Shown: piece after piece, positions 7,001-52,827 of the stretch
Layout: every line of letters starts with the position of its first letter
How positions within the stretch are numbered: the first letter of the stretch is position 1
From: an uncultured Elusimicrobia bacterium
GTDB taxonomy: Bacteria > Elusimicrobiota > Elusimicrobia > UBA1565 > UBA9628
DNA length: 57,945 nucleotides
Direction: 5' to 3'
NCBI GenBank assembly: GCA_964529095.1
Contig: CAZGVK010000093.1
Location: 1 to 57,945 of the forward strand
The notes under the pieces: generated by a model
Told to the model about the DNA's origin: nothing
Seen by the model: only the letters and a program-made list of their open reading frames with translations
The model's database searches: none
Program-made: the position numbers and the translations under genes

Positions 7001-7587
7001 TCATTGTTACGGTCGAGCACATAGATGTTGTCTGAAAGGTCCACGGCGACGCGCGCTGGATGATTGAGCAGGCCCGGATCCTTACCGTATCGACCGAACA
7101 GAAATAGGAGGATGCCCTCCTTGGTGAACACCTGGATGCGATTGTTGCCTGTATCAGAGACATAGATGCGGCCATCGGCGCCGACGGCAACCGACTCCGG
7201 ATTTTTAAGACGACCCGGTTCGGACCCCTTTTCGCCAAATGCGTAGACGAAGTTTCCGTCACGGTCAAAAATTTCGATGCGGTTGTTGCCGGTGTCGGCG
7301 ACATAGACATTGCCGCTGGGCCCAACGGCAATGCCGCGAGGCATGCTGAAGGATCCTTCATGGCTGCCGGATCGGCCAACGGATTTGATTAATTTCCCGG
7401 ACAAATCATAAAGGAGCATCGTGTTCTTCTTTTCGTCCACGACATAGAATCGATCGGTCGCCGCCGCGGCGGCGACGGGTTTGGCCAACTCGTCGCCCTT
7501 GATGGGTTCCAAAAATCGGATAGTGTCGTACGCGCGCGCGGACGCAGACAACAACAGGGCGAAAGCGACAAGTTTCATGCGGTTCAT
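4084..7587 (-). CDS. Large secreted multidomain protein: two NHL-repeat beta-propellers, an FN3-like module, a transglutaminase-like Cys-protease core, and C-terminal TPR
   Basis: 1167 aa with a signal peptide. Repeated motifs of the type V(A/S)DTGNNRI..F are NHL repeats. GQCSDLTSLYSAMLED...YPGHMTMMFD resembles a transglutaminase-like C/H/D core. TPR-like repeats sit at the C-terminus. Confidence 0.8.
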   Translation of the reverse strand: MNRMKLVAFALLLSASARAYDTIRFLEPIKGDELAKPVAAAAATDRFYVVDEKKNTMLLYDLSGKLIKSVGRSGSHEGSFSMPRGIAVGPSGNVYVADTGNNRIEIFDRDGNFVYAFGEKGSEPGRLKNPESVAVGADGRIYVSDTGNNRIQVFTKEGILLFLFGRYGKDPGLLNHPARVAVDLSDNIYVLDRNNERLQKFDASTKFIKEYALLGNDFVVDQYGFFYIVDGKNGKVIEQSGEGFIMGRFGSLGSGVGQMKKAEGIAMAPDGILLVLDTGNNRIHRVELTNKLKIKPLPMNVKTKMSVSGPSRAWPYSAAIIAPHGDELYAWLQKEMQFIRIDAQGKESIRFGVSKGKGAGITRSVGGMAAIKSAKVEGLYVTDVLNHRLQLFGLDGKWKSNVGEAQSFFDNKRREGRMKNPGGVAINGEGVVYVADTGNQRIDAFSPEGVFLFGFGPKVGAYMLIEPVAIAWDKDGFVYFVDKGLKRVFKCEPSGAYINSWGSEGDGPGEFKSPISIAFDGQNYLYTLDSQLRRISVHTKDGKWLTDFFAGGKQERELLEPIAVSVSGDKLMIADKGKGRLLSYDLHPLLAAPAGISTKTADGAVLISWIPVADPWTNSYIVSRATATLGPWMTVGETKTESFLDSEVAPFESYWYRIATKSKTLDVGPASHATPVFVTGSFNRSPVEISTVTLGDIFAANYKWYLLNPMGTALLTNNVNAPFQNVKLTFKLKDYMDFGFDTEIKKLDPKQTVSVPLIATLNNKVLEVTEDTPIQAEFTMTYFESGKQQTVSITKPLRLYSRNAITWQDPQRIANFVTQKDPPVRDFVRGVSAFEFKNPKATALNEPTVKAMRLWNALSEYGLKFFANSANPFETAHDDPNFPVDYTQFPRETLRSKSGQCSDLTSLYSAMLEDSNIRVAILDYPGHMTMMFDTEAEDAAEAGMPADLLVEHEGTMWVPIEVTYIGKPFVDAVSKAASAYKAEADKGRVKVYGLHQAWVTYEPVTMPPTDFSPKVPEASTLERRYNEQVNMLAKDRHEFLKKHYESELSKNGKDVEAQLQLGIIEYQFGNREAAVVEFNKALALDPANSAALNNLGCVAFIEGDNILAEKLYMQAAEVDADDAMIWMNLVKTSIRLKKMGKAREMGAKAVALTPAFEPVVNSLIKGS

Positions 7588-9020
7588 GCTTTGACGGCCT
7601 CCTTAATAAGCTTATTGACGAGAGCTGGATTCGCCTTTCCCTGAGACAGCTTCATAACGCCGCCCACGATGGAACCAATGGCGGCTTGCTTTCCTTTCTT
7701 TAAATCCTCGGCGGCCTTGGGGTTGGCTGAGAGGGCTTGTTGAACCCACTCGCCGACCTGCTTGTCGTCGGAGATCTGGGAGAGGCCCAACTCGACGACG
7801 AGTGTTTTTGGGGACCTGCCCGTCTCCCACATATGAGCGAAGACATCTTTGGCGCCTCGGGAGGATAATACGCCGCCGAGAATGAGCCCCGCGAGCTCGC
7901 CCAAATGCGCGGCGGCGACCGGCGACTCCGGCATGGTCTTTCCTTCGGCATTGAGGCGGGCCAGCATCTCGGTGGTGAGCAAATTGGACACGGTTTTAGC
8001 GGACCCTGCGGGAGCCGCGGCGACGGCTTTCTCGAAGTATTCGGCGAGCAGTTTGTCGCTGGTTAGAACCTCGGAGTCGTAGGAGGATAGCCTGAAATCG
8101 GAAATAAATCGAGCCCTTTTTTTTGCGGGCAGTTCGGGAAGATTCGCCTTGAGATCCTCGACCCAGCGCATGTCTGCAACGAGAGGCGCGAGGTCGGGAT
8201 CGGGGAAATAACGGTAGTCGTGCGCGTCTTCTTTGGAACGCATTGAGCGCGTCGCCTGGAGCGCGACATCCCAAAGACGCGTCTCCTGGATAATAGCGCC
8301 GCCCGACTCGATGACGGCGATCTGACGCCTGTGTTCATGCTCAATTGCGTCCTTTACGTTTTTGAACGAGTTTAGATTTTTTATTTCCGTGCGCGTGCCT
8401 AACTGATCCTGGCCAACGGGACGCACCGAGACGTTTGCATCGCAACGCATCTCCCCCTTCTCCATGTCGCAGCGCGAAACGCCGGTGAATTGGATGATCT
8501 CCTTCAGCGCGGCGAGATACGCGTACGCCTCCGCAGAGGAGCGCATGTCGGGCTCGCTCACGATCTCGATGAGCGGTATGCCCGCACGATTAAGGTCCAC
8601 CAGCGAGCCGCCGAGATCGTGGATGAGTTTGCCCGCGTCCTCCTCCAGGTGGATGCGCGTGATGCCTATCGTTTTCGCCTTGCCGTCAACGGTGATCGCG
8701 AGCTTGCCGTGCACGGAGAAAGGCTGATCGTATTGCGATATCTGGTAGGCCTTCGGCAGATCGGGGTAGAAATAATTTTTTCGGGAAAAAATCGACCGTG
8801 CGCTCAAGCGAGCCTCGAGCGCCAGCGCCGATTGAAAAGCGAGCTCGACCGCGCGGCGGTTGAGCGTCGGCAGGACTCCCGGCTGGGCCGAACACACGGG
8901 GCAGACACGGCTATTTGGATCTGAGCCAAAGCCGTCGGTGGCGCAGCCGCAGAAAAGTTTTGTCTTCGTGGCCAACTGACAGTGCACCTCAAGGCCGATG
9001 ATCAGTTCGTATTGTTTCAT
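7584..9020 (-). CDS. gatB: Asp/Glu-tRNA amidotransferase subunit B
   Basis: 478 aa with the canonical N-terminus YELIIGLEVHCQLATKTKLFCGC and full-length GatB-like sequence. Confidence 0.95.
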   Translation of the reverse strand: MKQYELIIGLEVHCQLATKTKLFCGCATDGFGSDPNSRVCPVCSAQPGVLPTLNRRAVELAFQSALALEARLSARSIFSRKNYFYPDLPKAYQISQYDQPFSVHGKLAITVDGKAKTIGITRIHLEEDAGKLIHDLGGSLVDLNRAGIPLIEIVSEPDMRSSAEAYAYLAALKEIIQFTGVSRCDMEKGEMRCDANVSVRPVGQDQLGTRTEIKNLNSFKNVKDAIEHEHRRQIAVIESGGAIIQETRLWDVALQATRSMRSKEDAHDYRYFPDPDLAPLVADMRWVEDLKANLPELPAKKRARFISDFRLSSYDSEVLTSDKLLAEYFEKAVAAAPAGSAKTVSNLLTTEMLARLNAEGKTMPESPVAAAHLGELAGLILGGVLSSRGAKDVFAHMWETGRSPKTLVVELGLSQISDDKQVGEWVQQALSANPKAAEDLKKGKQAAIGSIVGGVMKLSQGKANPALVNKLIKEAVKA

Positions 9021-10042: not shown

Positions 10043-11095
10043 TTACTTGCGGGCTTTGCACAGTTTACAGCTGAGGAAGGTCCAGGCGATGAGCTTGTAT
10101 AAAAGCCGCATGCCGACGTTGGCGTCCCATTCGTCCTTGACTTCGGGACCAGGGGAGACTTCGTTGAGGTCAAAGCCGATGATCTTTCTTCCCGAGCGCG
10201 CGACGAGTTCGATGAGGTGCGCGGCCTCCGCGAACTCGAGGCCGCCGGGGACGGGCGTGCCCGTATGAGGACAAAGTTTGGGATCGAGGCCGTCGATGTC
10301 GAAGGTGATCCAGACCTGTTGAGGCAAGGAGTCGACGATCCTTCCGGCGGTTTTTGTCCAGGGCTCTCCGGCGAAGCGGAAGCGGCCGAGGTCTCCGTCG
10401 TTGAATATTTTCGCGCGCTCCCCCAGGGCGCGCGCGTATTCATTCTCCTGTTCGCAGAAGTCGCGAATGCCGACCGAGGTGATCCGTATGATCTGGGGAA
10501 TGTTCTCCATCGCGTTATACATGATGGAGGCATGCGACCAAGTGAAGCCCTCGTAGGCGAGACGCATATCTAAATGAGCGTCGAAATGCAGCAGTCCGAA
10601 ATCGCCGTGTTTCTCCGCTGCGGCGCGAAAGGCCCCATAGGGGACGCTGTGATCGCCGCCGACAATGCCCGCGATCTTTCCCGCGTCCAGGAGGCTTTTG
10701 ACTTCACGATAGACCCAGTCGTTCACCTTCGCGCCGAGTTCGTTCGTGATTTTCAACGCCTTCTCCAGATCCTTGCGTCCTTCGATTCGTCCTCCAGCCT
10801 TAATGACCTTTTGAGCCGCGGACTTTGCCGTCCTATTCCATGCGCGCACAATCGGCGATTGCGCGCGCATGAAGATTCCCGGCTCATAGGGCCGGTGCAC
10901 CTCTGCGTCGAATAGGTCGATTTGCCCGCTGGCGGCGCGGATAGCGGTTGGACCTTGCGCGGTGCCGCCGCCGTAGGAGGTCGTCGCTTCCCAGGGCACG
11001 GGAACTAGAACGAGGGCTGAGTTCTTTTCTTCGTAGGGCAAACCAAAGATGCCGGCACCTTTAGTGGGCGCGGAGTTGGGATCAAAGTTGAGCAT
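10043..11095 (-). CDS. Agmatinase/ureohydrolase family protein
   Basis: 350 aa with the arginase-fold metal motifs GGDHSV, DAHLDMR and TFDIDGLDP. Confidence 0.8.
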   Translation of the reverse strand: MLNFDPNSAPTKGAGIFGLPYEEKNSALVLVPVPWEATTSYGGGTAQGPTAIRAASGQIDLFDAEVHRPYEPGIFMRAQSPIVRAWNRTAKSAAQKVIKAGGRIEGRKDLEKALKITNELGAKVNDWVYREVKSLLDAGKIAGIVGGDHSVPYGAFRAAAEKHGDFGLLHFDAHLDMRLAYEGFTWSHASIMYNAMENIPQIIRITSVGIRDFCEQENEYARALGERAKIFNDGDLGRFRFAGEPWTKTAGRIVDSLPQQVWITFDIDGLDPKLCPHTGTPVPGGLEFAEAAHLIELVARSGRKIIGFDLNEVSPGPEVKDEWDANVGMRLLYKLIAWTFLSCKLCKARK

Positions 11096-11127
11096 TGGCG
11101 CGGAGCATCACTTTTCCGGACGATCTG

Positions 11128-12186
11128 TTATCGAAGGGCGACGGGAATCGCCGCCTTCACGTCATTGAGCAATGCGTTGAAGCGCCGTTCACGGCGCTTC
11201 TTCCAGCTGCCTTTGTGATAGCCGTATGACGCAAGAACAGGAAGGGCGAGGGTGGCTTCAGAGAATACCATCTGTTCGTCGGTCACGGCGACCTTTCCCC
11301 ACGAGCAGGCCTCGCGCAAGGTTGAACCGGAGAGCGCGCCGTCGCGTTCGTCGGCCACGGTGATCTGCACTGCGTACTTATGCATGATCGGATCGAGGCC
11401 TATCATCTCAGCGCCAACCGTCACATCCTGGGCAAAATTTTTCGGCACGCCGCCGCCGATCATCAGGAGACCGGTGTCGCCGCAGGCGATCTTCACGCGA
11501 ACCAGCTCGCGGAAGTCCTTGGCCGAATCGATCGAAGCGTGGCTTTCGGGATTGTGCCACTGATGATGCAGGAAGCCGAAGCCCGCCGAACAGTCCGAGA
11601 AGGCGGGCACGAAGATCGGAACGCCTTTCTTATACGCGGACAAAACGATTGAATCTTTGACTTTGCCGTGTTTGACGAGGTACTTGCCCATCTCCTCAAG
11701 GATCTCGCGCGAGGAATAAGGCTTCGGTTGCAAGGATCCCACGATCTCGGAGATTTTATTGTCGCACGCGCCGAGTTCATCCTCGTCTATGAACGTGTCG
11801 TAAATGCGGTCGATCCGCGCGCCGCGCAGGGCCATGTCATCCTGCCACTTCGAACCCCTGTAGTGCTTGTAGCCCAGAGCCTCGAAGAAATCTTGGTCGA
11901 CGATGTTCGCTCCGGTGGAGACGATGGCGTCAACCATATTGCTCTCGATCATCTGCCAGATCACTTTCTTGAGCCCTGCGGAGATCAGCGAGCCCGCGAG
12001 GCAGAGGATCACCCCGCAGTCCTTGTCGGCGAGCATCTTATCGTAGATGGCGCTTGCGCGCGCGAGGTCGCGGGCGGAGAAGGCCATCTTAGAGAAGGCG
12101 TCGACGAGAGGGCGCATGTCGATCTTGGTGATGTCGACATGCTCGATCTCTTCCTTCAGTAGATCTGATTTTTTTATATTCGCCAT
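11128..12186 (-). CDS. Deoxyhypusine synthase-like protein (possible homospermidine synthase type)
   Basis: The track ORF extends to 12438. I place the start at ATG 12186 (MANIKKSDLL), preceded by GGAGGG. The DHS-like core is AGSLISAGLKKVIWQMIESNMVDAIVSTGANIVDQDFFEALG. Confidence 0.85.
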   Translation of the reverse strand: MANIKKSDLLKEEIEHVDITKIDMRPLVDAFSKMAFSARDLARASAIYDKMLADKDCGVILCLAGSLISAGLKKVIWQMIESNMVDAIVSTGANIVDQDFFEALGYKHYRGSKWQDDMALRGARIDRIYDTFIDEDELGACDNKISEIVGSLQPKPYSSREILEEMGKYLVKHGKVKDSIVLSAYKKGVPIFVPAFSDCSAGFGFLHHQWHNPESHASIDSAKDFRELVRVKIACGDTGLLMIGGGVPKNFAQDVTVGAEMIGLDPIMHKYAVQITVADERDGALSGSTLREACSWGKVAVTDEQMVFSEATLALPVLASYGYHKGSWKKRRERRFNALLNDVKAAIPVALR

Positions 12187-12330
12187 ATCAAGCTCGGTGA
12201 TCCCTCCGCAGAAATGCGCCTTTATTTTATAACATTGCTTAATGATGCCGGGAAAAAATCGGGCTGTCGGGTTGATTGACAGGTCCATCGCCGTTGCGCT
12301 CAAGTTATTTTCCCGCTTCGCGGAGAGGCT

Positions 12331-12633
12331 ATGATTGATGTAAATTCGCAGGAAGAGGTCGGTGACCTTTTTGTCACAGAAACTTCTTTGACCCTTAAGC
12401 TGTTGCCCAGCCGCAAAAGCGGCACTGTCCCGATCCATTGGTTTGCCAAAGAGGGGGTCACCAATGTCCGCCTGGCGGCGAAAGATATATCGACGCTCGT
12501 CGGCAAGCTTCGCGGTCGTGGCCGCGTCGTCCGCAATTTGACCGTGACGACCAATCGCGGGCTCGACACCGACCTGGGAAGAACGCGCCTCGGTGAGGCC
12601 GTGAAGAAGGCCGGCTTTCTCATCATTTCATGA
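12331..12633 (+). CDS. Hypothetical small protein, possibly translationally coupled to the SDR gene
   Basis: 100-aa ORF in an otherwise 440-bp gap. Its TGA overlaps the SDR ATG (ATGA). The third-codon positions of the 3' two thirds are G/C-rich like real genes here. No recognisable domain, and the start is uncertain. Confidence 0.3.
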   Translation: MIDVNSQEEVGDLFVTETSLTLKLLPSRKSGTVPIHWFAKEGVTNVRLAAKDISTLVGKLRGRGRVVRNLTVTTNRGLDTDLGRTRLGEAVKKAGFLIIS

Positions 12634-18142: not shown

Positions 18143-20827
18143 ATGCACAATCAAGCCAAGGTCCACCAAGACGCGCCATCTTCCGCGCTTCTTGATTTTT
18201 TTCTGCCGCTGCACAACGCTTTTGAGCCTCGCCGCCGTCTCCTGCTTGACGCGCGCCGGCGATCTCTTGAAAATGCGCATGCGGGCGTGCTGCCAGGCTA
18301 TCTTCCGGCGTCAGAGGCGACTGCTGGAAAATGGCGCTTGGCGGTGCCCTCATGGGCGCAAGACCAGCGCAACCAGATTACCGGCCCAGCCGACAACGCC
18401 AAGCTTCTTGTCGCGATGTGCAATACCCAAGATCCCGGCTGCATGCCCGACGGCGAGGACTCGATTACGGATGATTGGGATCATGTGAGGACGGCCCATC
18501 GCAATACGGTCGCCGCGATCAAGGGCACCTTGACCTTTACCGACGCTTCCGGCAAGAGGGTGGCAATTAAGCCCTCACGCCAGGTCATGTTTTACCGACC
18601 CCGCGGCCTTCACCTGCATGAGACCAACCTGGTCGCCGTTGGCGCCGTCTCCGCGTCGCTGTTCGATCTTGCCGCTGTTTTTTTCGAAACCGCGGACAAG
18701 CGCCGCGAGGCCGCAAAAAAGGCGGAGCGGCAGGCCAAGCTGTGCTTCTATATTCCCAAAACGGAGTCGTTTGAAGAGGCGGCCTGGTTTTCCGACATGA
18801 TTGCGGCGATGGAAACGGCTATCGGCATCCCTGTCGGTACGACCAAAATAATGTTCCTGATTGAATCGCTTCCAGCGGCCCATCAGGTTGAGGAGATTTT
18901 ATTTGCGGCGCGCCGCCACGCTATCGGTCTCAACCTCGGTCGTTGGGACTACATGGCGAGCATTCTTCATTTCAAGCTGGCCGATCCGGATTGGATTCTT
19001 CCCGACCGCAACACCATACCCCACGACATTCCTTTTTTCCAGAACATAAGAAAGCGAATCGTGGACGCTTGCCATCGGCGAGGGGCGCTCGCCATCGGCG
19101 GCATGAGCGCGTTGTTCCCGGATCGCACGAATGCGGAAGTCAACGCGCGTGCGCAGGAACGGCTTATCGCCGACAAGAAGAACGAGTCTCAAATTGGCTT
19201 TGACGGCGCTTGGACGGGTCATCCCGATCAACACAAGGGTGCCATTTCCCAGTTTCCCCTCCCCAATCAACTCTCAATCAAGCACGCAAAGGCCAAGCGC
19301 CTCGACCTCACGCCCTCGCCTGTCGGCGTCGGTGCGATCACTGTTGCCGGCACGCGCGATGCGATTCGGACCTGCATCGAATACCGTTTCGGCGTACTCT
19401 CGGGCCTTGGCGCGCGCCTGATCAAGGGCTACGACAAGACCGGCGCTTTGATCGGCAATTTCATGGAGGACTTGGCGACCGACCGAATCTACCGTCTCAT
19501 GATTGCCCAGCGCGTTCGCCACGGCGTCGTGACGGCCGAGGGCGTGAAGATATCGTCTGAGCTCGTGGATGCTTGGTTCGATGAGGAACTCCGGAATATT
19601 TTGGCTGCGAATTCAGGAGCCGCTTCGGCGGATCAATACAAGCAAGCCAGCGTGTGGAGCCAGCAAATGATCAAGCAAACAGCCGCGCCTAAACCCGTAG
19701 GAATTAAAACCTGGAAGTATCCCGCCGCCGAATTCGCGAAGATGTATGCGCCTGCCGAGAAGGGACATCCCGCCGACAAACTGCGCGCGCTTCTAAAGAA
19801 AAAATCAGCCAACCGCTTTAAAAATCCGGCGCAGTCCTTCCTGCACACTGCGGGCGCTTACGATGCGATAACCGCCTCGTTGCTCACGGATCTCGGCTTT
19901 GAGGCAATCTACGCCAGCGGCTGGCAGTTGGCCGTCGCCCACAACATGTATCCCGATATCGGCATCTACCCGTCGCATCAGATGGTCGATCTGGCGCGTG
20001 AACTCGTGCGCGGCATTGAGGGCACCCGCGACCGTCACTTTTATGATGATGACGGAAAAGTTCTCAATACGCCGCCGATCTTCGCCGACATCGAGGCTGG
20101 GTTCGGCGGACCGACCCAAACATTTACGCTGACGCGCGAGTTGATCCGCGCGGGCGTGGGCGGCGTTCACCTTGAAGATCAGGATCCGGCGGAGCGCACG
20201 TGCGGCCACATCGTGGCGCACCACGGCGTCAAGCGCGAGAAGGTTCTCGTGCCGACCAATAAGTGGATCGAGAAGCTCATCGCGGTGAAGGCTGCGGCAC
20301 AGGCTGCCGAAACGAACCTGGTCGTGATCGCGCGCACCGATGCAGTCGACGGCGCGGTCCCTGGCGGTCGGACCGGCAGTGTCGCGCACGCGATCGACCG
20401 CGCGCTTGAGGCGGCTTCGCTCGGCGTTGACGTGATCTGGCCTGAGTTCAACAACACCGATATCGAGGGGCCGCAGGAGTTTGCCGAGGGTGTGCATAAA
20501 TATTATCCGAACCAGATACTCGGATTCAACCTCTCTCCTTCGTTGCACTGGGGCAAGGCCAAGAAGGACGGCGTTTTAATCACCAATGAGATGTTGGGAA
20601 AAATAGGCTTTACGCTCCAGTTCTCGACCTTGCTCGCCTTTCGCACGATCGGCATGGCGCTGGAAAGTTCCCTGAAAAGCTTCCGCGAGCGCGGCATTGA
20701 CGCGCTCGCAGACCTGCAGATTTCAGAGATCGCTCAACCCAACGGCGAGCCGCGTACCCGCATGCACCAGAAGTTCGCCGGCACCAACCGCTGGCTCACG
20801 CTCGAGAAAGTCAGCAGGGGCGCATGA
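18143..20827 (+). CDS. Bifunctional malate synthase (N-terminal, A-type) and isocitrate lyase (C-terminal) fusion
   Basis: 894 aa. The N-terminal 520 aa or so carry malate synthase A features (ITGPAD, PDGEDS, GGMSALFP, FDGAWTGHPDQ). The C-terminal 335 aa or so carry ICL features (SGWQ, YPD..IYP, ADIEAGFGG, LEDQ...CGH, VLVPT, ARTDA, NLSPSLHW, LQFSTL). Confidence 0.85.
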   Translation: MHNQAKVHQDAPSSALLDFFLPLHNAFEPRRRLLLDARRRSLENAHAGVLPGYLPASEATAGKWRLAVPSWAQDQRNQITGPADNAKLLVAMCNTQDPGCMPDGEDSITDDWDHVRTAHRNTVAAIKGTLTFTDASGKRVAIKPSRQVMFYRPRGLHLHETNLVAVGAVSASLFDLAAVFFETADKRREAAKKAERQAKLCFYIPKTESFEEAAWFSDMIAAMETAIGIPVGTTKIMFLIESLPAAHQVEEILFAARRHAIGLNLGRWDYMASILHFKLADPDWILPDRNTIPHDIPFFQNIRKRIVDACHRRGALAIGGMSALFPDRTNAEVNARAQERLIADKKNESQIGFDGAWTGHPDQHKGAISQFPLPNQLSIKHAKAKRLDLTPSPVGVGAITVAGTRDAIRTCIEYRFGVLSGLGARLIKGYDKTGALIGNFMEDLATDRIYRLMIAQRVRHGVVTAEGVKISSELVDAWFDEELRNILAANSGAASADQYKQASVWSQQMIKQTAAPKPVGIKTWKYPAAEFAKMYAPAEKGHPADKLRALLKKKSANRFKNPAQSFLHTAGAYDAITASLLTDLGFEAIYASGWQLAVAHNMYPDIGIYPSHQMVDLARELVRGIEGTRDRHFYDDDGKVLNTPPIFADIEAGFGGPTQTFTLTRELIRAGVGGVHLEDQDPAERTCGHIVAHHGVKREKVLVPTNKWIEKLIAVKAAAQAAETNLVVIARTDAVDGAVPGGRTGSVAHAIDRALEAASLGVDVIWPEFNNTDIEGPQEFAEGVHKYYPNQILGFNLSPSLHWGKAKKDGVLITNEMLGKIGFTLQFSTLLAFRTIGMALESSLKSFRERGIDALADLQISEIAQPNGEPRTRMHQKFAGTNRWLTLEKVSRGA

Positions 20828-21689: not shown

Positions 21690-22045
21690 AGGGACGGCCG
21701 GAGGGCCGCTGGTCCGCAAGGACGGGAGGAACTTCCGGACTCCGTAGAGCGTGATGCCCGTTGAAAGGCGGGGAGGCGGGGCCCATAAGCCCCGTCGACG
21801 GAAAGTACCACAGAAAATAACCGCCCTCGCGTGAGGGTAAGGGTGAAAAGGTGGGGTAAGAGCCCACCGCGGCCGCCGCGAGGCGTCCGGCAACGGTAAA
21901 CCCCGTCGGGAGCAAGGCAGTGGGGCGGAGGGCGCTGCTCGCGCCAGAACTCGCGCAAGCGAGTCGCGGCCGCCCGGTAGCCGCTGAGAGAAATGGTCCT
22001 CGAGCCCGCAAGGGTGGACAGAATCCGGGGTACAGGCCGTCCCTG
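21690..22045 (+). ncRNA. rnpB: RNase P RNA, bacterial type A
   Basis: Conserved blocks read directly: GGUAAGGGUGAAAAGGUGGGGUAAGAGCCCACCGCG, CCACAGAAAAUAACCGCC, GGUAAACCCC..GGGAGCAAGGC and GGACAGAAUCCGGGGUAC. The P1 termini pair (GGGACGGCC / GGCCGUCCC). The overlapping track ORFs are artefacts. Confidence 0.9.
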
Positions 22046-22057
22046 ATTAAAATCAAG

Positions 22058-29481: not shown

Positions 29482-30630
29482 TTATTTGTTTGCGCTCAAT
29501 TCGGCCGCCTCGACAAGCTTGGACAAGCGCGCGAAAACGACATCCTCGTCATGCGCGTGCGCCTTGACGATGCGCGCGCGGCGCGCATCGTCAGAGTCCA
29601 TGGACCCGGCCGCGGCGATCCACTCGGCGGGCGTGCGGCAGATCGTCAGGAGCGAAGACAATCCCGAAAGCGCAGGCAAGGGGCTGGCCAATACCAGACG
29701 GCCCGTCGCCAAGCATTCGTAGGTCTTGGCCGGTATGACGCCGCGATTATACGCATCGTCAACATACGGCAGAAGCAAGGCGTCCATTCCAGAGAGCAAG
29801 GCCGGCAAGTCTTCGTGGGGGCAAGGGCCGCGCAATGCGACTGACGGAGGCAACGGCGGCGGCGGTTCCTTAATCGGGCCGATGAGTTCAACCTCAAAAC
29901 CGGCCTCCGCCAGCGCTCGTATGGGCGCGTAGTCAATCGCCCGCCATAAAGTCCCGAAGTAGCAAAGACGCCGCCGTCGTCGGCTCGGCGGCGGGGGAAT
30001 AAAGAACGCGGGGCTTACGCCATGATGCAGTTCAAAGACGTTATGATGCAGCGGCTTCTTCTCTTCGTACAGCGTATGCGAGGTCGTCAGCACGAGACCG
30101 GCGCGCGCCATCAGCGCGGCCTCGGTCTGAGCCAGATCCGGGGGCGAGGAAAGCAGGCCGTAGAAATTGTCTACGCAGTCATAGACGACAAGCGCCGGCT
30201 TAAGCTGGTCAAGCATATCCAGAGTCGTCGACGTTGGAAGATAGGCGAAGACCACGGGGTTCTGCCGCATGCCGCGATTATAAAGGATGCTGACGAGGCG
30301 TGGCGCCAGCAGGGACGCGTTGGCCTTGCGAAACAGCCGGCGCGTGGGCGGCAGAACGAGCGGGCTGACGACGACAATCCCCTGAGGCGCGCGTACGCGG
30401 CGAGAATGTTCGCCGCGCAGACTGCGGAGGAGGCGGCGCCAGATGCGCCCCATCTCGCTTAGACGCGGCTCGCGAAAGCCGGTGTTCTCGACAAAAAAGA
30501 CGCGATGCCCGGCGCGCGCCCACTGCGCGGCGAAAGCGTGATGGCGCTGCCGGGCCGCATCCCAATCAACGCTTGAAAGAATGACGACGTCGCCGCGCTG
30601 ATCGCTCACAGGACGCTTATGATACAGCAA
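29482..30630 (-). CDS. Glycosyltransferase (GT1/TuaH-like), last gene of the polysaccharide operon
   Basis: 382 aa with a TTG start at 30630. Its 5' end lies inside direct-repeat copy 1. GT-B-like C-terminal half. Confidence 0.75.
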   Translation of the reverse strand: MLYHKRPVSDQRGDVVILSSVDWDAARQRHHAFAAQWARAGHRVFFVENTGFREPRLSEMGRIWRRLLRSLRGEHSRRVRAPQGIVVVSPLVLPPTRRLFRKANASLLAPRLVSILYNRGMRQNPVVFAYLPTSTTLDMLDQLKPALVVYDCVDNFYGLLSSPPDLAQTEAALMARAGLVLTTSHTLYEEKKPLHHNVFELHHGVSPAFFIPPPPSRRRRRLCYFGTLWRAIDYAPIRALAEAGFEVELIGPIKEPPPPLPPSVALRGPCPHEDLPALLSGMDALLLPYVDDAYNRGVIPAKTYECLATGRLVLASPLPALSGLSSLLTICRTPAEWIAAAGSMDSDDARRARIVKAHAHDEDVVFARLSKLVEAAELSANK

Positions 30631-30661
30631 AAATCGGCGTTGGCGTCCGAAACCTCAGCCG
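30591..30661. repeat. 71-bp direct repeat, copy 1 (left boundary of the insert)
   Basis: Identical to 33114..33184 except C30653 versus T33176. It contains the glycosyltransferase start and the upstream junction sequence. Confidence 0.95.
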
Positions 30662-30996
30662 ACCGGGCTGGGACCGACCCCTTGATTAATCCCAGGAGAG
30701 GGTCTATCCTGGGCCCGCGAGGGCGGCTGCGGCGGAAAGCGGGCTGATTTTGCCTAGCTTGTACCGGACGTAGATCGGGTTGGGGGTATGCGGCTCCGGT
30801 CAACTTTGTCAAAAATACTGTAGTTGCGCAGTCACTGATAGCGTTCATGGGGTAGCTGGAATAGAACGACGATGGATCATGCGGTCGGTAAATATGGCCG
30901 ACTTCTGGAAGGTAAGAAACCTCATGAACGTTCGCGTCTATTGAGGAGTTTGTTCAGTCAATCCAAAGCGAGGGTCTCGATTTCGAGTACGTCCCT

Positions 30997-31191
30997 ATGG
31001 GCAGCGGCACGACGCGCAAGGATTCCCTGGTCGTTGAAGTGGACACGCAGAACAAGGAAAAGGACCTCGACAAGCTCGATATCCCGCTGCCGAGAATCAC
31101 CCGCCGTTTTCACCGGGACTTCAAGGATCTCGACGCGCTCGACCCCATTTCGCTAAGTCCTTTGCGCGCGAGCGCATTCCTCGGTGCATGA
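30997..31191 (+). CDS. Orphan ORF or gene fragment inside the insert
   Basis: The open frame actually extends back to about 30928 (..IEEFVQSIQSEGLDFEYVPMGSGTT..), and a neighbouring frame continues upstream, suggesting a frameshifted remnant. It vaguely recalls helicase/restriction-subunit C-termini, but I cannot verify that. Confidence 0.25.
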   Translation: MGSGTTRKDSLVVEVDTQNKEKDLDKLDIPLPRITRRFHRDFKDLDALDPISLSPLRASAFLGA

Positions 31192-31227
31192 ACCAGTTCA
31201 GAATAGTCATATTTCGTTGCTTGTGAG

Positions 31228-31305
31228 GTCTAACGCCGAGGATGAACCGCGGGCGCTCTAAGGCCTTCATCATGAGCGCCCGGCGGCTCTATCCGATGGT
31301 TAGCC
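31228..31305 (-). repeat. attC-like recombination site 1
   Basis: Imperfect palindrome with GTCTAAC ... GTTAGCC ends, an unpaired spacer next to the end boxes, and a GC-rich inner stem (CCGC/GGGCGCTC). Two single-base bulges (G and T) both sit on the plus-strand 3' arm. It abuts the RelE/ParE-like stop at 31307. Confidence 0.6.
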
Positions 31306-31306
31306 C

Positions 31307-31582
31307 CTATAAATAGTGCTTCAAAAATTGCCGGACCTCGTTGTGATTGCCGACGAATAGGAATGTCACGGTCTGTTTATCCCACTGGAACAAGATGCGA
31401 GTGGCCAGGTCTATCCGAAATTCCCAGACCGATCCACCCATTTTTTTTATTCCAAAACCAACCGGAAGATTTCTTGCATCAAAGGCACGGACGAGTGCAT
31501 CAATATTCCTCTGAATTTCCATGCGTTCCGCCGGATGGCGGCGCCTAAGGATTCTTTCGAATCCTCCGCCGAGAAGGTACAT
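31307..31582 (-). CDS. RelE/ParE-superfamily type II toxin
   Basis: 91 aa, ATG at 31582. The pattern is GGSVWEFRIDLATRILFQWDKQTVTFLFVGNHNEV. It lies directly downstream of an RHH antitoxin gene. Confidence 0.75.
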   Translation of the reverse strand: MYLLGGGFERILRRRHPAERMEIQRNIDALVRAFDARNLPVGFGIKKMGGSVWEFRIDLATRILFQWDKQTVTFLFVGNHNEVRQFLKHYL

Positions 31583-31585
31583 CAA

Positions 31586-31819
31586 TCAAAGGCTCCAGAG
31601 ATGCTTAAGAAATGCTGCGGAGTTCTTAAATTTCCTGGTCCCCTTGCCTCGCTTCGCATCGGTCGCCATTCGCTTGATCTCACCATCCGCGAACCGTGAG
31701 GTATAGGAACTGTCGATGGCCTCTCTAACGAGCTGGGAATAGCTCTTCCCGGATTCAGCTGCCTCCCGGCGAAGGGCCAAAACCTCTTTCTTTTCTAGGA
31801 GAATCTGGACTCTAATCAT
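31586..31819 (-). CDS. Ribbon-helix-helix (CopG-like) antitoxin
   Basis: 77 aa. The N-terminal IRVQILLEKKEVLALRREAAESGKSYSQLVREAI is a typical RHH fold sequence. Confidence 0.75.
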   Translation of the reverse strand: MIRVQILLEKKEVLALRREAAESGKSYSQLVREAIDSSYTSRFADGEIKRMATDAKRGKGTRKFKNSAAFLKHLWSL

Positions 31820-31836
31820 ATTATACCCCTATATTG

Positions 31837-31865
31837 TGTATAACATGTGTAATTGCTCGTGTCAA
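31837..31865 (-). promoter_or_regulatory. Sigma70-like promoter for the RHH/RelE pair
   Basis: Minus strand reads TTGACA, 17 nt, TATACA. A TATAAT also lies just before the antitoxin ATG. Confidence 0.5.
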
Positions 31866-31869
31866 GAGG

Positions 31870-32031
31870 CTAATTTGCGGTGATTAGCCAGGCGAGCAGA
31901 AAGCCACTTAACTGATGCCAGCCCGTGAATGTAAATTTTAAAACCCTACTGCTAAGCACATATGTAATTGGGAAAAGAACGACCACACATGGCAGCGTGA
32001 AAGCAGCGATTAGGGAGAGAAAATAAGACAT
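31870..32031 (-). CDS. Small two-helix membrane protein (53 aa)
   Basis: Internal ATG preceded by AAGGAGGAA. MSYFLSLIAAFTLPCVVVLFPITYVL...LSGFLLAWLITAN gives two hydrophobic helices. It is in the same attC-delimited unit as the RHH/RelE pair. Confidence 0.4.
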   Translation of the reverse strand: MSYFLSLIAAFTLPCVVVLFPITYVLSSRVLKFTFTGWHQLSGFLLAWLITAN

Positions 32032-32069
32032 CTGCCGTTCCTCCTTGTCCGAAATATCATCGCAAATGC

Positions 32070-32112
32070 GCCTAACGCAGAGGCTGACCAGCGGCGGCTT
32101 CAATGGTTCGGC
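32070..32112 (-). repeat. Short or degenerate attC-like site 3
   Basis: GCCTAAC ... GTTCGGC ends share the AACGC.GAGG and ATGGTT flanks seen in the other two sites. At only 43 bp with a weak stem, it is below normal attC length. It abuts the BrnA stop. Confidence 0.35.
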
Positions 32113-32122
32113 CCGGGGGTGC

Positions 32123-32341
32123 CTATGCCGCCCATTTCAGTGCGAGCTTCTTGTGATGCGCTGCACAATCGCGCAGGTACAGGTTAATCAAGTTCTGATA
32201 TGGCATCCCAACCTCAGATGCCAGCTCTTTGAAATACAAAACAGTCGCCTTATCCAGCCGAATGGTAATGGGCTGCTTTAGGCGAGAGATGTACGGGTTC
32301 TTTACGCCCTTCATCTTTGAAAAATCATAGTGCGTTCTCAT
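32123..32341 (-). CDS. brnA: BrnA-family antitoxin
   Basis: 72 aa from MRTHYDFSKMKGVKNPY, with an RHH-like C-terminal part. GGGAGG lies in the end of the upstream toxin gene. Confidence 0.8.
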   Translation of the reverse strand: MRTHYDFSKMKGVKNPYISRLKQPITIRLDKATVLYFKELASEVGMPYQNLINLYLRDCAAHHKKLALKWAA

Positions 32342-32346
32342 ATGGG

Positions 32347-32631
32347 TTACCTCCCGTAATCCTTCGACTCGCTCTTGCTCGCCTTCCTTGCGGAAATGAT
32401 GCGGATCACTGCATCGCCGTCTCTGAAGCAGTGGCATACAACGAGAACTTTCAGTTTGACGCTCATACCCAGAAGAATGAAGCGATCTTCGTCACCTGAA
32501 TCGTCAGGATCGATAAAACGAAAAGCCTTTTCATCAAAGAACGCGGTCTGGGCTTCCGCAAAAGCAACTCCGTGCTTTCGGATGTTCTCCTTATCCTTGG
32601 CTTTGTCCCATCCGAAGCGCAACTCACTCAT
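32347..32631 (-). CDS. brnT: BrnT-family (DUF497) toxin
   Basis: 94 aa. FGWDKAKDKENIRKHGVAFAEA...RIISARKAS is the typical BrnT pattern, and the toxin-first gene order is as in BrnTA. Confidence 0.85.
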   Translation of the reverse strand: MSELRFGWDKAKDKENIRKHGVAFAEAQTAFFDEKAFRFIDPDDSGDEDRFILLGMSVKLKVLVVCHCFRDGDAVIRIISARKASKSESKDYGR

Positions 32632-32637
32632 ACATAC

Positions 32638-32666
32638 AGTGTATGCACAGAAGTGAGAAAAGTCAA
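32638..32666 (-). promoter_or_regulatory. Sigma70-like promoter for brnTA
   Basis: Minus strand reads TTGACT, 17 nt, TACACT, ending 6 nt before the brnT ATG. Confidence 0.5.
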
Positions 32667-32702
32667 TCCCAATGCTGTTTCCGGGTTGTTTCTGGTTAGT
32701 GG

Positions 32703-32775
32703 GCCGAACGCTGAGGATCTCCAGCGCCCGCTATAAGGCCGTTCGGCGGGCGTCTGGAGAATCCCATGGTTAGAC
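32703..32775 (-). repeat. attC-like recombination site 2
   Basis: GCCGAAC ... GTTAGAC ends with a long inner stem (CTCCAG/CGCCCGC). Two single-base bulges again sit on the plus-strand 3' arm. The flank sequence is shared with site 1 (AACGCYGAGGAT ... ATGGTTAG). Confidence 0.55.
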
Positions 32776-32845
32776 CGCCGTTTTTACTCACCAGCGCCGA
32801 TGCATCAATTAAGTAGTGTCGAGGCACGTACTACTTCAGCGCTTC

Positions 32846-32986
32846 CTACAGCTCGCGAAATGTGACAGGCCTATCGCTTAGAGGAGGCAGGGAGTCAATG
32901 CGCTTGAAAATTTCTTTCACCTTGCGGCTCAGATTCTTCCAGCCTTTCTCACCATGCTCTTTTTTATAGATTTCCTGATGAGTCAT
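32846..32986 (-). CDS. Hypothetical 46-aa ORF in the first cassette-like unit
   Basis: It is below the track's apparent length cutoff (shortest listed ORF is 60 aa), so it is not listed there. The ATG is preceded by AAGAGGAGG. Sequence MTHQEIYKKEHGEKGWKNLSRKVKEIFKRIDSLPPLSDRPVTFREL. Confidence 0.3.
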   Translation of the reverse strand: MTHQEIYKKEHGEKGWKNLSRKVKEIFKRIDSLPPLSDRPVTFREL

Positions 32987-33113
32987 CGCGCCTCCTCTTG
33001 AAGTATGGGGTATTTTATAAAAAATTCAAGACCTGTTTCCCATCGAATGCGAGTTTATCCACATCGAGCCAACCGCGCCATGAAGCGCTCAAAAACGTCT
33101 TCGGGAACCTCGA

Positions 33114-33184
33114 CGCCGCGCTGATCGCTCACAGGACGCTTATGATACAGCAAAAATCGGCGTTGGCGTCCGAAATCTCAGCCG
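33114..33184. repeat. 71-bp direct repeat, copy 2 (right boundary of the insert)
   Basis: See copy 1. This copy holds the deacetylase stop codon (33178-33180) and a decoy glycosyltransferase start that runs into a 32-codon chimeric ORF. Confidence 0.95.
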
Positions 33185-33942
33185 TCGCGCAACAACGGGT
33201 CTGCTTGCCGCCAGGAAAACCAGTCCCAGGTTCCAGAGGCCTTGCCGATGAAGTCCCGCTCGTCATCGAAGCCCGTGATCTCGACGCGCTTGAGCAGCAG
33301 AGGCGCGCGGCCTGCTTGATTGATGCCGTAGAGCGAGCAGGCCGCGCGTGTAAAGCCGGCGGCACTAGCCGCAGCCTGCGTTCGCCGCGAGGCGGCACCG
33401 TGCGGCCAGGTCATCACCGTCACGCTTCGGCGGAGGGCTTTTTCCAGGCATTGCCGCGACTCGATAAGTTCATGGGCTAGATCCATGTCGCCGAGCGCGT
33501 CCAGGCGCCGATGCGTGAGGCCGTGTGCGCCGATCTCGCAGCCCGGCATGCGGGAGAGTTCCGTCAATTGCGGCCAGGAGAGGTGAGGATGCCCGGAGTC
33601 AAGCAGCCCGGGCGTAACACAGACGGTAAACGGCAAAGACAGTCGCGCGAGAATCGGGGCCGCTGTCATCAGCGTATCGAGATAACCATCGTCGAATGTG
33701 ATGCTGATTTCAGCGCCGCCGTCGATCTTAGCGTCGCCTATGTTGACAGGGCGTCCGAAGCGTTCCGAGCGGATCAGCTCCATCTGGCGCGCGAAGATGT
33801 TTGGCTGAGAGCTCAGTCCGTAACGATCACCGGGGATGTCGGTGCCGACGGCGTGATAGCCCAAGATGCGCAAACCCGTCGAGCGTGAGGCGCGCCCGGC
33901 GACGCGGGCGATCGTCCGCCAGAGCGAATGCTTCCAGCTCAC
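33178..33942 (-). CDS. Polysaccharide deacetylase (NodB homology domain)
   Basis: ISITFDDGY and GAHGLTHRRL motifs. Start placed at the GTG that overlaps the upstream TGA (GTGA), not at the track ATG 34017. Confidence 0.8.
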   Translation of the reverse strand: MSWKHSLWRTIARVAGRASRSTGLRILGYHAVGTDIPGDRYGLSSQPNIFARQMELIRSERFGRPVNIGDAKIDGGAEISITFDDGYLDTLMTAAPILARLSLPFTVCVTPGLLDSGHPHLSWPQLTELSRMPGCEIGAHGLTHRRLDALGDMDLAHELIESRQCLEKALRRSVTVMTWPHGAASRRTQAAASAAGFTRAACSLYGINQAGRAPLLLKRVEITGFDDERDFIGKASGTWDWFSWRQADPLLRDG

Positions 33943-42888: not shown

Positions 42889-43675
42889 TCTCGGGGTCTT
42901 AGGCGCTATCGCCGCGCGTGCGATCGAGAGAATCGCCCGCGAAAAGACCCGGCGCTCCGTGGAGTCGTTGCGCGCTGAGCCGCTGTATGGACGCTCGCCG
43001 ATGTCGTTAGCCAAAGCGTTGTCATTTCCAGGTCCGCGCGTGATCGCGGAGGTTAAATTCACATCGCCATCCGAGGGGGTTTTGCGCCCCAATCCATCCT
43101 CAAGCGAGGCTTCTGAAATAGCGGCTTCTTATGTTTCCGCGGGAGCGGCCGCGATCTCAATCATAACGGAACCGGAATTCTTCGCCGGCGACGCGGCATT
43201 TCTCGCCGCCGCCCGCCGGAAGTGTTCGAACGTTCCTTTGTTGATGAAGGATTTTTTTGTGGATGAATATCAATTTGAAATAGCCCGTTCCGTCGGCGCG
43301 GACGCCATCCTCTTGATCGCGGCGCTCTTGGGCCCGAGACTTTCCGAGATGCATCAGTCCGCCCGGTTTTTGGGCCTTTCCGTATTGGTGGAAGTTCATG
43401 ACGAAAAAGAGGCGTTAGCGGCGATAGCGGCGGGGGCGGATATTATCGGCGTCAACAGCCGCGACCTGAGGACTCTTCGCGTCGATTTGTCCACCGCCCG
43501 TCGCTTGGCGCCGCTTGTCTGCCGCTCCGGAATCACCGCCGTGGCGGAAAGCGGCCTCAATTCCCGCGCCGATATCGATTCCTTGTTCTCTTTGGGCTAC
43601 AGTGGATTTTTGATCGGCTCTTCATTGATGAGGACGCCCGAACCCGGCGCCGCCCTGAAGATGCTCCTCGTTTAG
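42881..43675 (+). CDS. trpC: Indole-3-glycerol-phosphate synthase
   Basis: The track ORF is long only because its frame stays open inside trpD. I place the start at GTG 42881, overlapping the trpD end. Motifs are VIAEVKFTSPS, LLMKDFFVDEYQ and IGVNSRDL. Confidence 0.85.
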   Translation: MADLGVLGAIAARAIERIAREKTRRSVESLRAEPLYGRSPMSLAKALSFPGPRVIAEVKFTSPSEGVLRPNPSSSEASEIAASYVSAGAAAISIITEPEFFAGDAAFLAAARRKCSNVPLLMKDFFVDEYQFEIARSVGADAILLIAALLGPRLSEMHQSARFLGLSVLVEVHDEKEALAAIAAGADIIGVNSRDLRTLRVDLSTARRLAPLVCRSGITAVAESGLNSRADIDSLFSLGYSGFLIGSSLMRTPEPGAALKMLLV

Positions 43676-52131: not shown

Positions 52132-52827
52132 TTAGGCAGATTTATAATTCTCGTGGATCAATAGATCCTCATAGAAGGCACCAAAGGGATTATCCGGATG
52201 ACAGATTTGGATCTCCAGCATCCATGCATCTGGAGAGGGTGCAAAGCCAACCTCGGCGAGGCCGCCTTTGAAGTAGATGGCATGAGGAAAGTCGGATAAG
52301 CGATGGCCATTGGCGCGCAGGTTGAGTCTCCAGCCTAGCTCCTCTGTTTTTCGGACTGCGAAATCATAGAGCCCCTTCCCCGTTTCGTGCTCTCTGCACC
52401 AGCGCTCCTTAACTGCGTTGAAAATCGTTTTGACATCGGCTTGACACCGCTTCATCTCCTTATCGAAGCCAGTGACAAAGGTACTGCCAGCGTCGCCCTC
52501 GTAGCCACCCCAAACGGGGCCAATGTCAATGAAAAAAATGTCCTCCTCCTTGAGATGCGCTCCACGAGTGGACAGGACCCCGTACGGCTTCAGAGTATTG
52601 ACGCCGAAACGGATCCATGGTCGATGCCAATTCTTGGCGGAACCCATCCCATTTAAGATCGTCCTGGCCGCCTCATAGGCATCCTCCTCCAGCATGCCAA
52701 CATGGATTGCCTGTGCTATCCGCTCCACAGCCCTCCAGGTCGTGGCTCGGGCAGCCATGAGCACCTCGCGGTTGAACCCGGGCCCGGTTTTTTCGACTTG
52801 TCGATCCTGAACTATCATCACTCTCAC
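52132..52827 (-). CDS. M24 (creatinase/aminopeptidase fold) family protein
   Basis: 231 aa with a pita-bread-like pattern (FFIDIGPVWGGYEGDAGSTF). Metal ligands not verified. Confidence 0.55.
   Translation of the reverse strand: MRVMIVQDRQVEKTGPGFNREVLMAARATTWRAVERIAQAIHVGMLEEDAYEAARTILNGMGSAKNWHRPWIRFGVNTLKPYGVLSTRGAHLKEEDIFFIDIGPVWGGYEGDAGSTFVTGFDKEMKRCQADVKTIFNAVKERWCREHETGKGLYDFAVRKTEELGWRLNLRANGHRLSDFPHAIYFKGGLAEVGFAPSPDAWMLEIQICHPDNPFGAFYEDLLIHENYKSA

Follow-up and report, generated by a model that had tools for sequence, protein, structure and literature searches.

The subject of this analysis is a 2.45-kb block found within a gene cluster of an uncultured Elusimicrobia bacterium. The block (30662-33110) lies in contig CAZGVK010000093.1 of assembly GCA_964529095.1, which was analysed over its whole length of 57,945 bp and is referred to below as the window. 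It separates a polysaccharide deacetylase gene upstream (33178..33942, minus strand; Polysacc_deac_1, 2.2e-19) from a glycosyltransferase gene downstream (29482..30609, minus strand; Glyco_trans_1_2 match). FemAB-like, DegT aminotransferase, GT2, RmlD-like and epimerase genes were recognised by Pfam further upstream, and these neighbours identify the host locus as a surface-polysaccharide cluster. The remainder of the window holds housekeeping genes only. The host is an Elusimicrobiota bacterium, and the closest named homologues of its deacetylase come from Elusimicrobia metagenome-assembled genomes (MAGs; 75% identity). GC content is 0.45-0.55 inside the block versus 0.63-0.68 in its flanks. 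The block contains three sites resembling the attC recombination sites of integrons, designated S1, S2 and S3, and three toxin-antitoxin (TA) type modules, with the cassettes read on the minus strand, i.e., in the direction of the host operon.

Relatives of the glycosyltransferase (61-74% identity) were found in eight metagenome loci. In four related loci (L031, L032, L033, and L036; 70-74% protein identity) the deacetylase gene is immediately next to the glycosyltransferase gene or overlaps it. Since these four loci lack the block, it can be considered an insertion. Gene content after the deacetylase varies among the nearest relatives, whose deacetylases are at most 75% identical to that of the window, so this point is a variable module boundary.

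S1 is located at 31228..31305 (78 nt), S2 at 32070..32112 (43 nt), and S3 at 32703..32775 (73 nt), all on the plus strand, which is the bottom strand of S1 and S3. The initial annotation of this stretch ascribed a single architecture to the three sites. Their coordinates, terminal boxes and inner flanks agree with that description in each case, while a stem is present only in S1 and S3, S2 being reduced to its end boxes. The boxes are GTCTAAC...GTTAGCC in S1, GCCTAAC...GTTCGGC in S2 and GCCGAAC...GTTAGAC in S3. As proposed, they resemble RYYYAAC and GTTRRRY, each with no more than one base off the consensus, and are complementary at 5-6 of 7 positions. The inner flank motifs AACGCNGAGG and ATGGTTMGNC occur three times each in the 57,945 bp, on the plus strand and at S1, S2 and S3 only, against shuffle means of 0.56 and 0.69.

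S1 begins with the R' box GTCTAAC, the spacer GCCGA and the L' box GGAT, followed by the stem and loop; its 3' part consists of a G bulge, a 6-bp stem with one A.C mismatch, a T bulge, the L'' box ATCC, the spacer GATG and the R'' box GTTAGCC. S3 has the same order of elements: R' GCCGAAC, spacer GCTGA, L' GGAT, stem and loop, then a T bulge (position 23), the 6-bp stem CTGGAG, an A bulge (position 16), L'' ATCC, spacer CATG and R'' GTTAGAC. The spacers of the two sites are thus 5 nt (GCNGA) and 4 nt (NATG) long, one arm being 1 nt short of the usual length, which is offset by the 4-bp L box. Both sites fold into imperfect hairpins more stable than their shuffled versions (z = -2.7 for S1 and -3.0 for S3). 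Each has exactly the two single-base bulges on the plus-strand 3' arm that had been noted from the letters, T16 and G23/24 in S1 and A16 and T23 in S3, and folding of the plus strand gives the canonical attC geometry. Cleavage at AA|C is predicted between 31233 and 31234 in S1 and between 32708 and 32709 in S3.

S2 folds no better than shuffled sequences (z = 0.04). It retains the R boxes GCCTAAC / GTTCGGC and the adjacent spacers; the L box and the stem are gone (GGCT / CTTC are unpaired). Its 43 nt are below the 57-141 bp range of attC sites, and it lacks the pair of bulges. In the minus-strand reading, stop codons are found immediately 5' of S1 (31307, a 92-aa gene) and of S2 (32123, brnA).

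According to Nivina et al. (2016), the attC bottom strand carries RYYYAAC in its R' box and, on the arm opposite the AAC, two extrahelical bases (positions 16 and 23/24) with a 6-bp stem between them, together with an unpaired spacer of 5-6 nt, the total length being 57-141 bp. For comparison, class 1 attC sites were taken from plasmid integrons, and their bottom strands were folded alongside the sites of the window. The bulges are G16 and T23 in aadA2, C16 and T23 in blaVIM-2, and G16 and T24 in aac(6')-29a. Two Elusimicrobiota sites from the family described below have A16 and T23 (L016) and T16 and G23/24 (L008), as do S3 and S1, respectively. The register of the bulges is therefore identical in the window, in Elusimicrobiota and in class 1 integrons, while the identity of the bulged bases and a one-base shift between spacer and L box differ. 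The bottom-strand layout (RYYYAAC, spacer, L box, 6-bp stem between the bulges at 16 and 23/24, GTTRRRY) is shared with class 1 sites, and the sequence after AAC is alike as well (AACGCCGGAG / AACGCCGAAG in comparison with AACGCCGAGG). In contrast, the window has an L box of 4 bp and spacers of 5/4 nt, as compared with 3 bp and 6/5 nt in class 1 sites.

A script applying only the published geometric rules found three matches in the window: S1, S3 and a chance match at 43166, the background being 0.75 matches per resampled window. S2 was not picked by this filter. The candidate at 43166-43238, as well as another one at 52594-52628 found with a covariance model (R1, see below; E = 0.27), was rejected as a chance match, since both fold no better than shuffled sequences and lie inside housekeeping genes. 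Overall, S1 and S3 are predicted to be structurally intact attC sites with the plus strand as the bottom and the minus strand as the top strand, in line with the orientation assigned to them by the initial annotation. S2 appears to be a decayed attC and is not expected to work.

To see how far such sites are distributed, one genome per species of bacteria and archaea was scanned with the pattern AACGCNGAGGAT-N30-60-ATCCNATGGTT, derived from S1 and S3. The scan returned 29 stretches, about 21 of them in Elusimicrobiota MAGs and the other 8 or so in scattered phyla. The latter equal the estimated chance number (about 8), and R1 gives them only 21-27 bits. One complete Elusimicrobiota chromosome has five exact matches to the pattern within a single 8-kb stretch. 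An 85-column alignment of 26 family sites has AAC and GTT invariant in all 26 members and 97.7% pairing in the main helix (helix 2), with compensatory changes in 9 of its 17 pairs. None of 500 shuffles reached the observed pairing and covariation, and sliding the partners reduced pairing to 22-47%.

A covariance model built from these 26 sites, with the window's own sites excluded (R1), matches S3 with 69.5 bits on the plus strand (E = 1e-18; 11.1 bits on the minus strand) and S1 with 64.4 bits on the plus strand (E = 4e-17; 13.0 bits on the minus strand). S2 has 19.2 bits on the plus strand (E = 0.0025), with no minus-strand match listed; here the end boxes alone were aligned and 56 model positions were skipped. 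Nothing else in the window reaches E < 0.2. In Elusimicrobiota loci R1 matches over 60 additional sites, and those of any one locus all have the same orientation. The arrays reach up to 12 sites per 8 kb; among the matches listed, 11 sites belong to L027, 10 to L016, and 9 to L015. L027 and L016, as well as L022, all come from CP096137.1, a complete Elusimicrobiota chromosome (3.8-Mb genome). The dense co-oriented attC arrays of CP096137.1 suggest a large sedentary chromosomal integron.

The second model, R2, was made from seven class 1 attC sites only (aadA2, aadB, blaVIM-2, aacA4, dfrA27, arr-3, and aac(6')-29a). Its top two matches in the whole window are S1 (19.2 bits, E = 0.004) and S3 (15.4 bits, E = 0.06), both on the plus strand and with the bulges in register; S2 is not picked up. 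At least 25 sites of Elusimicrobiota are matched by R2 as well, on the strand expected for them. These cross-model scores of only 15-19 bits, like the bulge bases, set the Elusimicrobiota-type sites apart from class 1 attC.

Further sites with the same flanks, ideally next to an intI, had been named as the support to look for, and such arrays do exist in Elusimicrobiota. With IntI1 as the query, homologues were found adjoining arrays in three loci, L021, L006, and L019. The open reading frame (ORF) 5211-6410 of L021 matches TIGR02249 with 417 bits (cut-off 265). Its product aligns with IntI1 without gaps through the IntI-specific segment; about 80 residues at its N-terminus form an extension with no alignment to IntI1. 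Of the two ORFs directly following this intI, 6574-7029 ends at the site 7022-7106 and 7112-7873 at the site 7866-7950, and their strand is opposite to that of the pattern. L001, apparently a continuation of the L021 contig, adds two more sites. The intI segment of L019 is located at 7806-8000. That of L006 (1106-1905) was split by tblastn into two segments; judging by their coordinates, they are in different frames, so this copy is possibly a pseudogene.

In all three loci intI lies upstream of the array and shares the strand of the cassette ORFs. This atypical arrangement, in which intI is read in the direction of the cassettes, is known from Treponema integrons (Coleman, 2004; Wu et al., 2013, PMC3607928) and is shared by the parent integrons of Elusimicrobiota, though not by the window itself; a difference is the N-terminal extension of the L021 integrase, unaligned to IntI1. 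Complete integrons are thus present in Elusimicrobiota MAGs, and the phylum carries chromosomal integrons whose attC sites form a homogeneous family and whose integrase has the orientation of the cassettes. No papers describing integrons in Elusimicrobia or Elusimicrobiota turned up in full-text searches, though large automated surveys may list such integrons in their tables.

Measured from crossover to crossover, the sites of the window delimit units of 842 bp (31234-32075) and 633 bp (32076-32708). The initial annotation had placed each site directly 3' of a gene set and had estimated units of about 840 and 630 bp; both statements agree with the stop codons and unit lengths given here. The 633-bp unit, cassette B (32076..32708, minus strand), has the decayed S2 as its own attC. 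It codes for a BrnT toxin (32347-32631, minus strand; Pfam BrnT_toxin 1.8e-27, 95.9 bits, cut-off 34.5) and a BrnA/CopG antitoxin (32123-32344, minus strand; CopG_antitoxin 1.3e-07, 32.7 bits, cut-off 28). The BrnA_antitoxin profile gives the latter 24.2 bits, just below the cut-off of 26.1. A promoter-like site is located at 32666->32638. The two genes are predicted to encode a BrnT/BrnA type II toxin-antitoxin system.

A cassette in the nine-site array of another Elusimicrobiota MAG (L015:1912-2526) matches cassette B with 89% identity over 615 bp. The neighbours of the brnTA cassette differ on both sides between the window and L015, as independent cassette movement predicts. In L015 it closes the recognisable part of the array: R1 has no site beyond it, and no attC belonging to this cassette could be recognised. 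Visual inspection suggested a tRNA-like stretch where the L015 array ends, which a tRNA search did not confirm, as it found no tRNA genes in L015 or in the window.

Cassette C (31234..32075, minus strand, 842 bp) ends in S1. It contains an ORF for a 53-aa two-helix membrane protein with a strong Shine-Dalgarno sequence (31870-32031, minus strand), a ribbon-helix-helix (RHH) antitoxin-like gene (31586-31819, minus strand; RHH_1, 1.4e-4) and a 92-aa toxin-like gene (31307-31585, minus strand). The gene ending at 31307 had been labelled RelE-like. The position of its stop is right, while the label is poorly supported, the sole Pfam match of the 92-aa protein being a sub-threshold one to Gp49/PF05973 (E = 0.022, 15.3 bits, cut-off 23.9). 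Searches of NCBIfam, PADLOC and PDB sequences gave nothing relevant for it or for other small ORFs, and an exact-protein look-up had neither this protein nor BrnT on record.

The RHH and 92-aa genes form a conserved two-gene module that is also present in other Elusimicrobia contigs (window 31307-31819; L051:5767-6279; L053/L054:7764-8282; L055:1905-2423; L052:1900-2412). This conserved pairing supports a TA module. The module is usually located among housekeeping genes with no attC nearby; in L052 it adjoins an attC of the family. We predict that the pair is mobile as a two-gene unit. The family of the 92-aa protein comprises 17 members, belongs to no Pfam family and was seen only in Elusimicrobia-type contigs; the protein is a candidate for an undescribed toxin family.

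Upstream of S3 only a remnant of cassette A is left (32709..33110, minus strand), with a 46-aa ORF (orf46, 32846-32986) and about 13 codons (32827->32789) of a gene cut off by S3. In L056/L057 a homologue of orf46 (72% identity) precedes a complete 174-aa gene, which begins VPRHYLIDASAM; of this gene, only MPRHYLIDASALV is left before S3 in the window. The full-length relative is located at L056:1464-1988 and has no Pfam match. Such an arrangement suggests that orf46 and the truncated gene formed a third, now broken, two-gene module. The three TA-type modules of the insert are therefore orf46 with its truncated partner, BrnT/BrnA, and the RHH/92-aa pair.

The distal segment of the insert (30662..31233) extends for 566 bp downstream of S1 and has no terminal attC. 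An open frame of about 85 codons on its plus strand (30935-31191) lacks a start codon and probably represents a fragment of a gene. No Pfam or PADLOC match was obtained for this segment, and it has no similarity to any of the related loci compared. A fourth attC was not found in 30662-31227, in 32778-33110 or in the repeat copies described below, even by R1 with filters off and E <= 10. The initial annotation had the attC-like sites delimiting the inserted genes. This applies to the cassette units; the insert as a whole is delimited by a 74-bp direct repeat instead.

The copies of this repeat are located at 30588..30661 (left) and 33111..33184 (right). The repeat covers the stop codon of the deacetylase, the 47-nt spacer that follows and the glycosyltransferase's first 8 codons. 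The left copy includes the true glycosyltransferase start (GTG at 30609) and the 47-nt spacer upstream of it, while the right copy includes the deacetylase stop (33178-33180) and a dead glycosyltransferase start that runs into the insert. The GTG was chosen as the start by alignment with related loci. The copies are 97% identical (family D1), with an identical core of 61 bp and two mismatches near the outer ends. Of the two variants, the native one is that adjoining the glycosyltransferase (GAC GTC, coding for Asp-Val, as conserved in relatives). For the repeat and for the end segments of the insert, only short chance-level matches were found in other loci. In L031 (5950-6080), L032, and L036 the deacetylase stop and the glycosyltransferase start overlap (ATGA). 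Compared to the related loci, about 56 extra nt are present at 33130-33195 of the window, mostly inside the direct repeat.

A CALIN (an attC cluster that lacks an integron integrase) was defined by Cury et al. (2016) as at least two attC clustered within 4 kb with no integron integrase nearby. In the window S1 and S3 are 1.4 kb apart. The claim that it contains no tyrosine recombinase withstood both searches: tblastn found no IntI-like or Xer-like sequence in the 57,945-bp contig (best E = 1.4), and Pfam scans of its 38 long ORFs revealed no recombinase or transposase. A complete integron consists of intI, attI, and attC, and there is no intI in the window. We regard the insert as a putative CALIN, a known class of element, and not as a complete integron. 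The initial description of the locus, an integrase-less cassette array inside a sugar operon, is borne out: the CALIN is situated in a polysaccharide cluster, with related loci free of the insert. In our interpretation, it is very probably what remains of an Elusimicrobiota-type integron cassette array after decay, a fragment situated between the deacetylase gene and the glycosyltransferase gene of the chromosomal cluster.

Like the CALINs described by Cury et al. (2016), the element is small (2-3 sites), carries no antibiotic resistance genes and, as is the case for most of them, has no intI pseudogene or transposase beside it. It differs from them in being flanked by a 74-bp direct repeat of the target with attC at neither end, in its host phylum, Elusimicrobiota, and in having one of the three sites reduced to end boxes. 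With sedentary chromosomal integrons, e.g., the Vibrio cholerae superintegron, the related Elusimicrobiota loci share highly similar attC sites (9-11 per 8 kb), and TA modules serving as cassettes with their own promoter-like sites are common to both. A published report (PMC13108822) describes TA cassettes as regulating and stabilising arrays. In contrast to these integrons, the window has a 2.45-kb fragment without the platform (intI, attI and the Pc promoter), the attC family of Elusimicrobiota is about 73-85 nt long as opposed to about 120-130 nt for the Vibrio cholerae repeats, and its first bulge is A or T, not G.

Presumably, the cassettes could still be mobilised. An integron integrase acting in trans, encoded elsewhere in the genome or by an incoming element, would bind the folded plus strands of S3 and S1 and cut both at AA|C, so that a circle of 1,475 bp (31234-32708) would be excised. 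Since S2 is unlikely to work, cassettes B and C would leave as one unit, a fused double cassette carrying brnTA and the RHH/92-aa pair. The TA modules with their own promoter-like sites would probably act as addiction modules and so retain the insert.

Several points weigh against the interpretation of the insert as an integron-derived array fragment. The R2 scores are modest (E = 0.004 and 0.06), and the model was made from trimmed sites. The pattern used for collecting the family came from S1 and S3, so the end motifs of R1 are partly circular, which does not apply to the stems and bulges. The extrahelical bases (A/T at 16, T/G at 23/24) are unlike the usual G16/T23. The lack of an integrase refers to one 58-kb contig of the genome, and the array is decayed, with a degenerate S2, a truncated gene beside S3 and no terminal attC. 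Finally, as the contig was assembled from a metagenome, the 74-bp repeat could stem from a walk of the assembly graph through a shared 61-bp repeat. The palindromes might also be intrinsic terminators or repetitive extragenic palindromic (REP) like intergenic repeats unrelated to integrons, their position reflecting transcript ends: they are GC-rich hairpins located just after stop codons, and attC sites and terminators can look alike at first glance. This explanation is hardly credible, however. No T-tract follows S1, S2 or S3, a feature by which the initial annotation would have recognised ordinary terminators, and a terminator scan of both strands found none there. Such sites are absent from the rest of the 58 kb of chromosome, and the family forms dense arrays beside integron integrases. 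Conserved bulges at 16 and 23/24 and a strand asymmetry of about 50 bits are not traits of terminators, and a model of class 1 attC picks out S1 and S3.

With no attC at either end of the insert and with a 74-bp direct repeat around it, simple integrase-mediated insertion by recombination between attC and a genomic site was probably not the route by which the array fragment arrived. A direct insertion of this kind at a secondary genomic site, followed by deletions (the attG route; Loot et al., bioRxiv 10.1101/2022.09.11.507474), is an alternative: insertion by IntI outside att sites is efficient in E. coli and was proposed as the origin of small CALINs and SALINs (single attC sites lacking integron integrase; see also Cury et al., 2016), the top strand of the right junction, GAG|GTTCCCG, contains GTT, and the array is visibly decayed. 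Here, as there, cassettes are found off the platform in ordinary chromosomal genes or operons and are oriented for host transcription. However, an insert that arrived this way ends downstream in a complete attC and has no duplicated target, whereas in the window the downstream end at 30662 has no attC even at E <= 10 and the direct repeat brackets the insert; besides, GTTCCCG is a poor match to GTTRRRY. We consider the attG route improbable. With modest confidence, we favour a Campbell-type crossover between the chromosome and a circular DNA of 2,523 bp with a matching 74-bp stretch, for which an identical 61-bp core with mismatches at the outer ends is the expected pattern. Template switching with a long target duplication is also possible. 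Threading by an assembler gives the same pattern, so the sites may be genuine attC while their location in the operon is an artefact, a separate circular or tandem 2.5-kb element with the same 61-bp core having been joined to the chromosome. The window is a whole metagenome-derived contig, its copies of the repeat share 61 identical bp and diverge only close to their outer ends, as would result from a walk from chromosome through repeat, element and repeat back to chromosome, and the only near-identical public contig (L030, 99.98%) stops at 29901, before the junction. An exact-protein look-up of PBP returned only one Logan contig of 5.6 kb, which ends before the insert. A contig of 99.98% identity is present in run ERR4904393. 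A real Campbell-type integration gives an identical arrangement, so the pattern does not discriminate between the two; yet the repeat copies are not identical (97%), and the dead glycosyltransferase start of the right copy reads into the insert as it would at a real junction. We therefore hold misassembly to be quite improbable, and it would change only the location, the attC and CALIN identity being unaffected.

Circular molecules with several cassettes are a normal product of integrase excision. It is tempting to speculate, although we find it rather unlikely, that the 2,523-bp unit (the insert and one copy of the repeat) was such an excision product and entered the chromosome via the 74-bp stretch inside one of its cassettes instead of an attC. 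The three attC would then correspond to three cassettes, the circle having been opened in the third one (31227->30662, the repeat and 33110->32778). If this were true, CALINs could be seeded by a homologous or an unknown site-specific route, without any action of the integrase at the target. More broadly, Elusimicrobiota would then hold a previously undescribed lineage of chromosomal integrons with a co-oriented intI and an attC family of their own.

CALINs are common, and their origins are debated, integrase loss, rearrangement and insertion at secondary sites all being considered. The one described here is clean and small, has a defined empty site in relatives and has junctions that do not fit the integrase route, so it could inform on how array fragments spread. 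Integrons have hardly been described in Elusimicrobiota, a poorly studied and mostly uncultured phylum. The R1 model could serve to recognise cassettes that originate from Elusimicrobiota in metagenomes. Lying within a surface-polysaccharide operon, the three TA-type modules may influence how the glycosyltransferase downstream of them is expressed.

Some other features of the window are unrelated to the insert. An Rfam scan at gathering thresholds, in a database that has no attC family, identified RNase P RNA only (21690-22048; bacterial class A, 181.9 bits). An arginase-family gene adjoins a deoxyhypusine-synthase-like gene at 10043-12438, and this pair may belong to a polyamine pathway of the homospermidine type. 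The 894-aa ORF at 18143-20827 contains malate synthase (TIM barrel, C-terminal) and isocitrate lyase domains and appears to encode a fused enzyme of the glyoxylate shunt.

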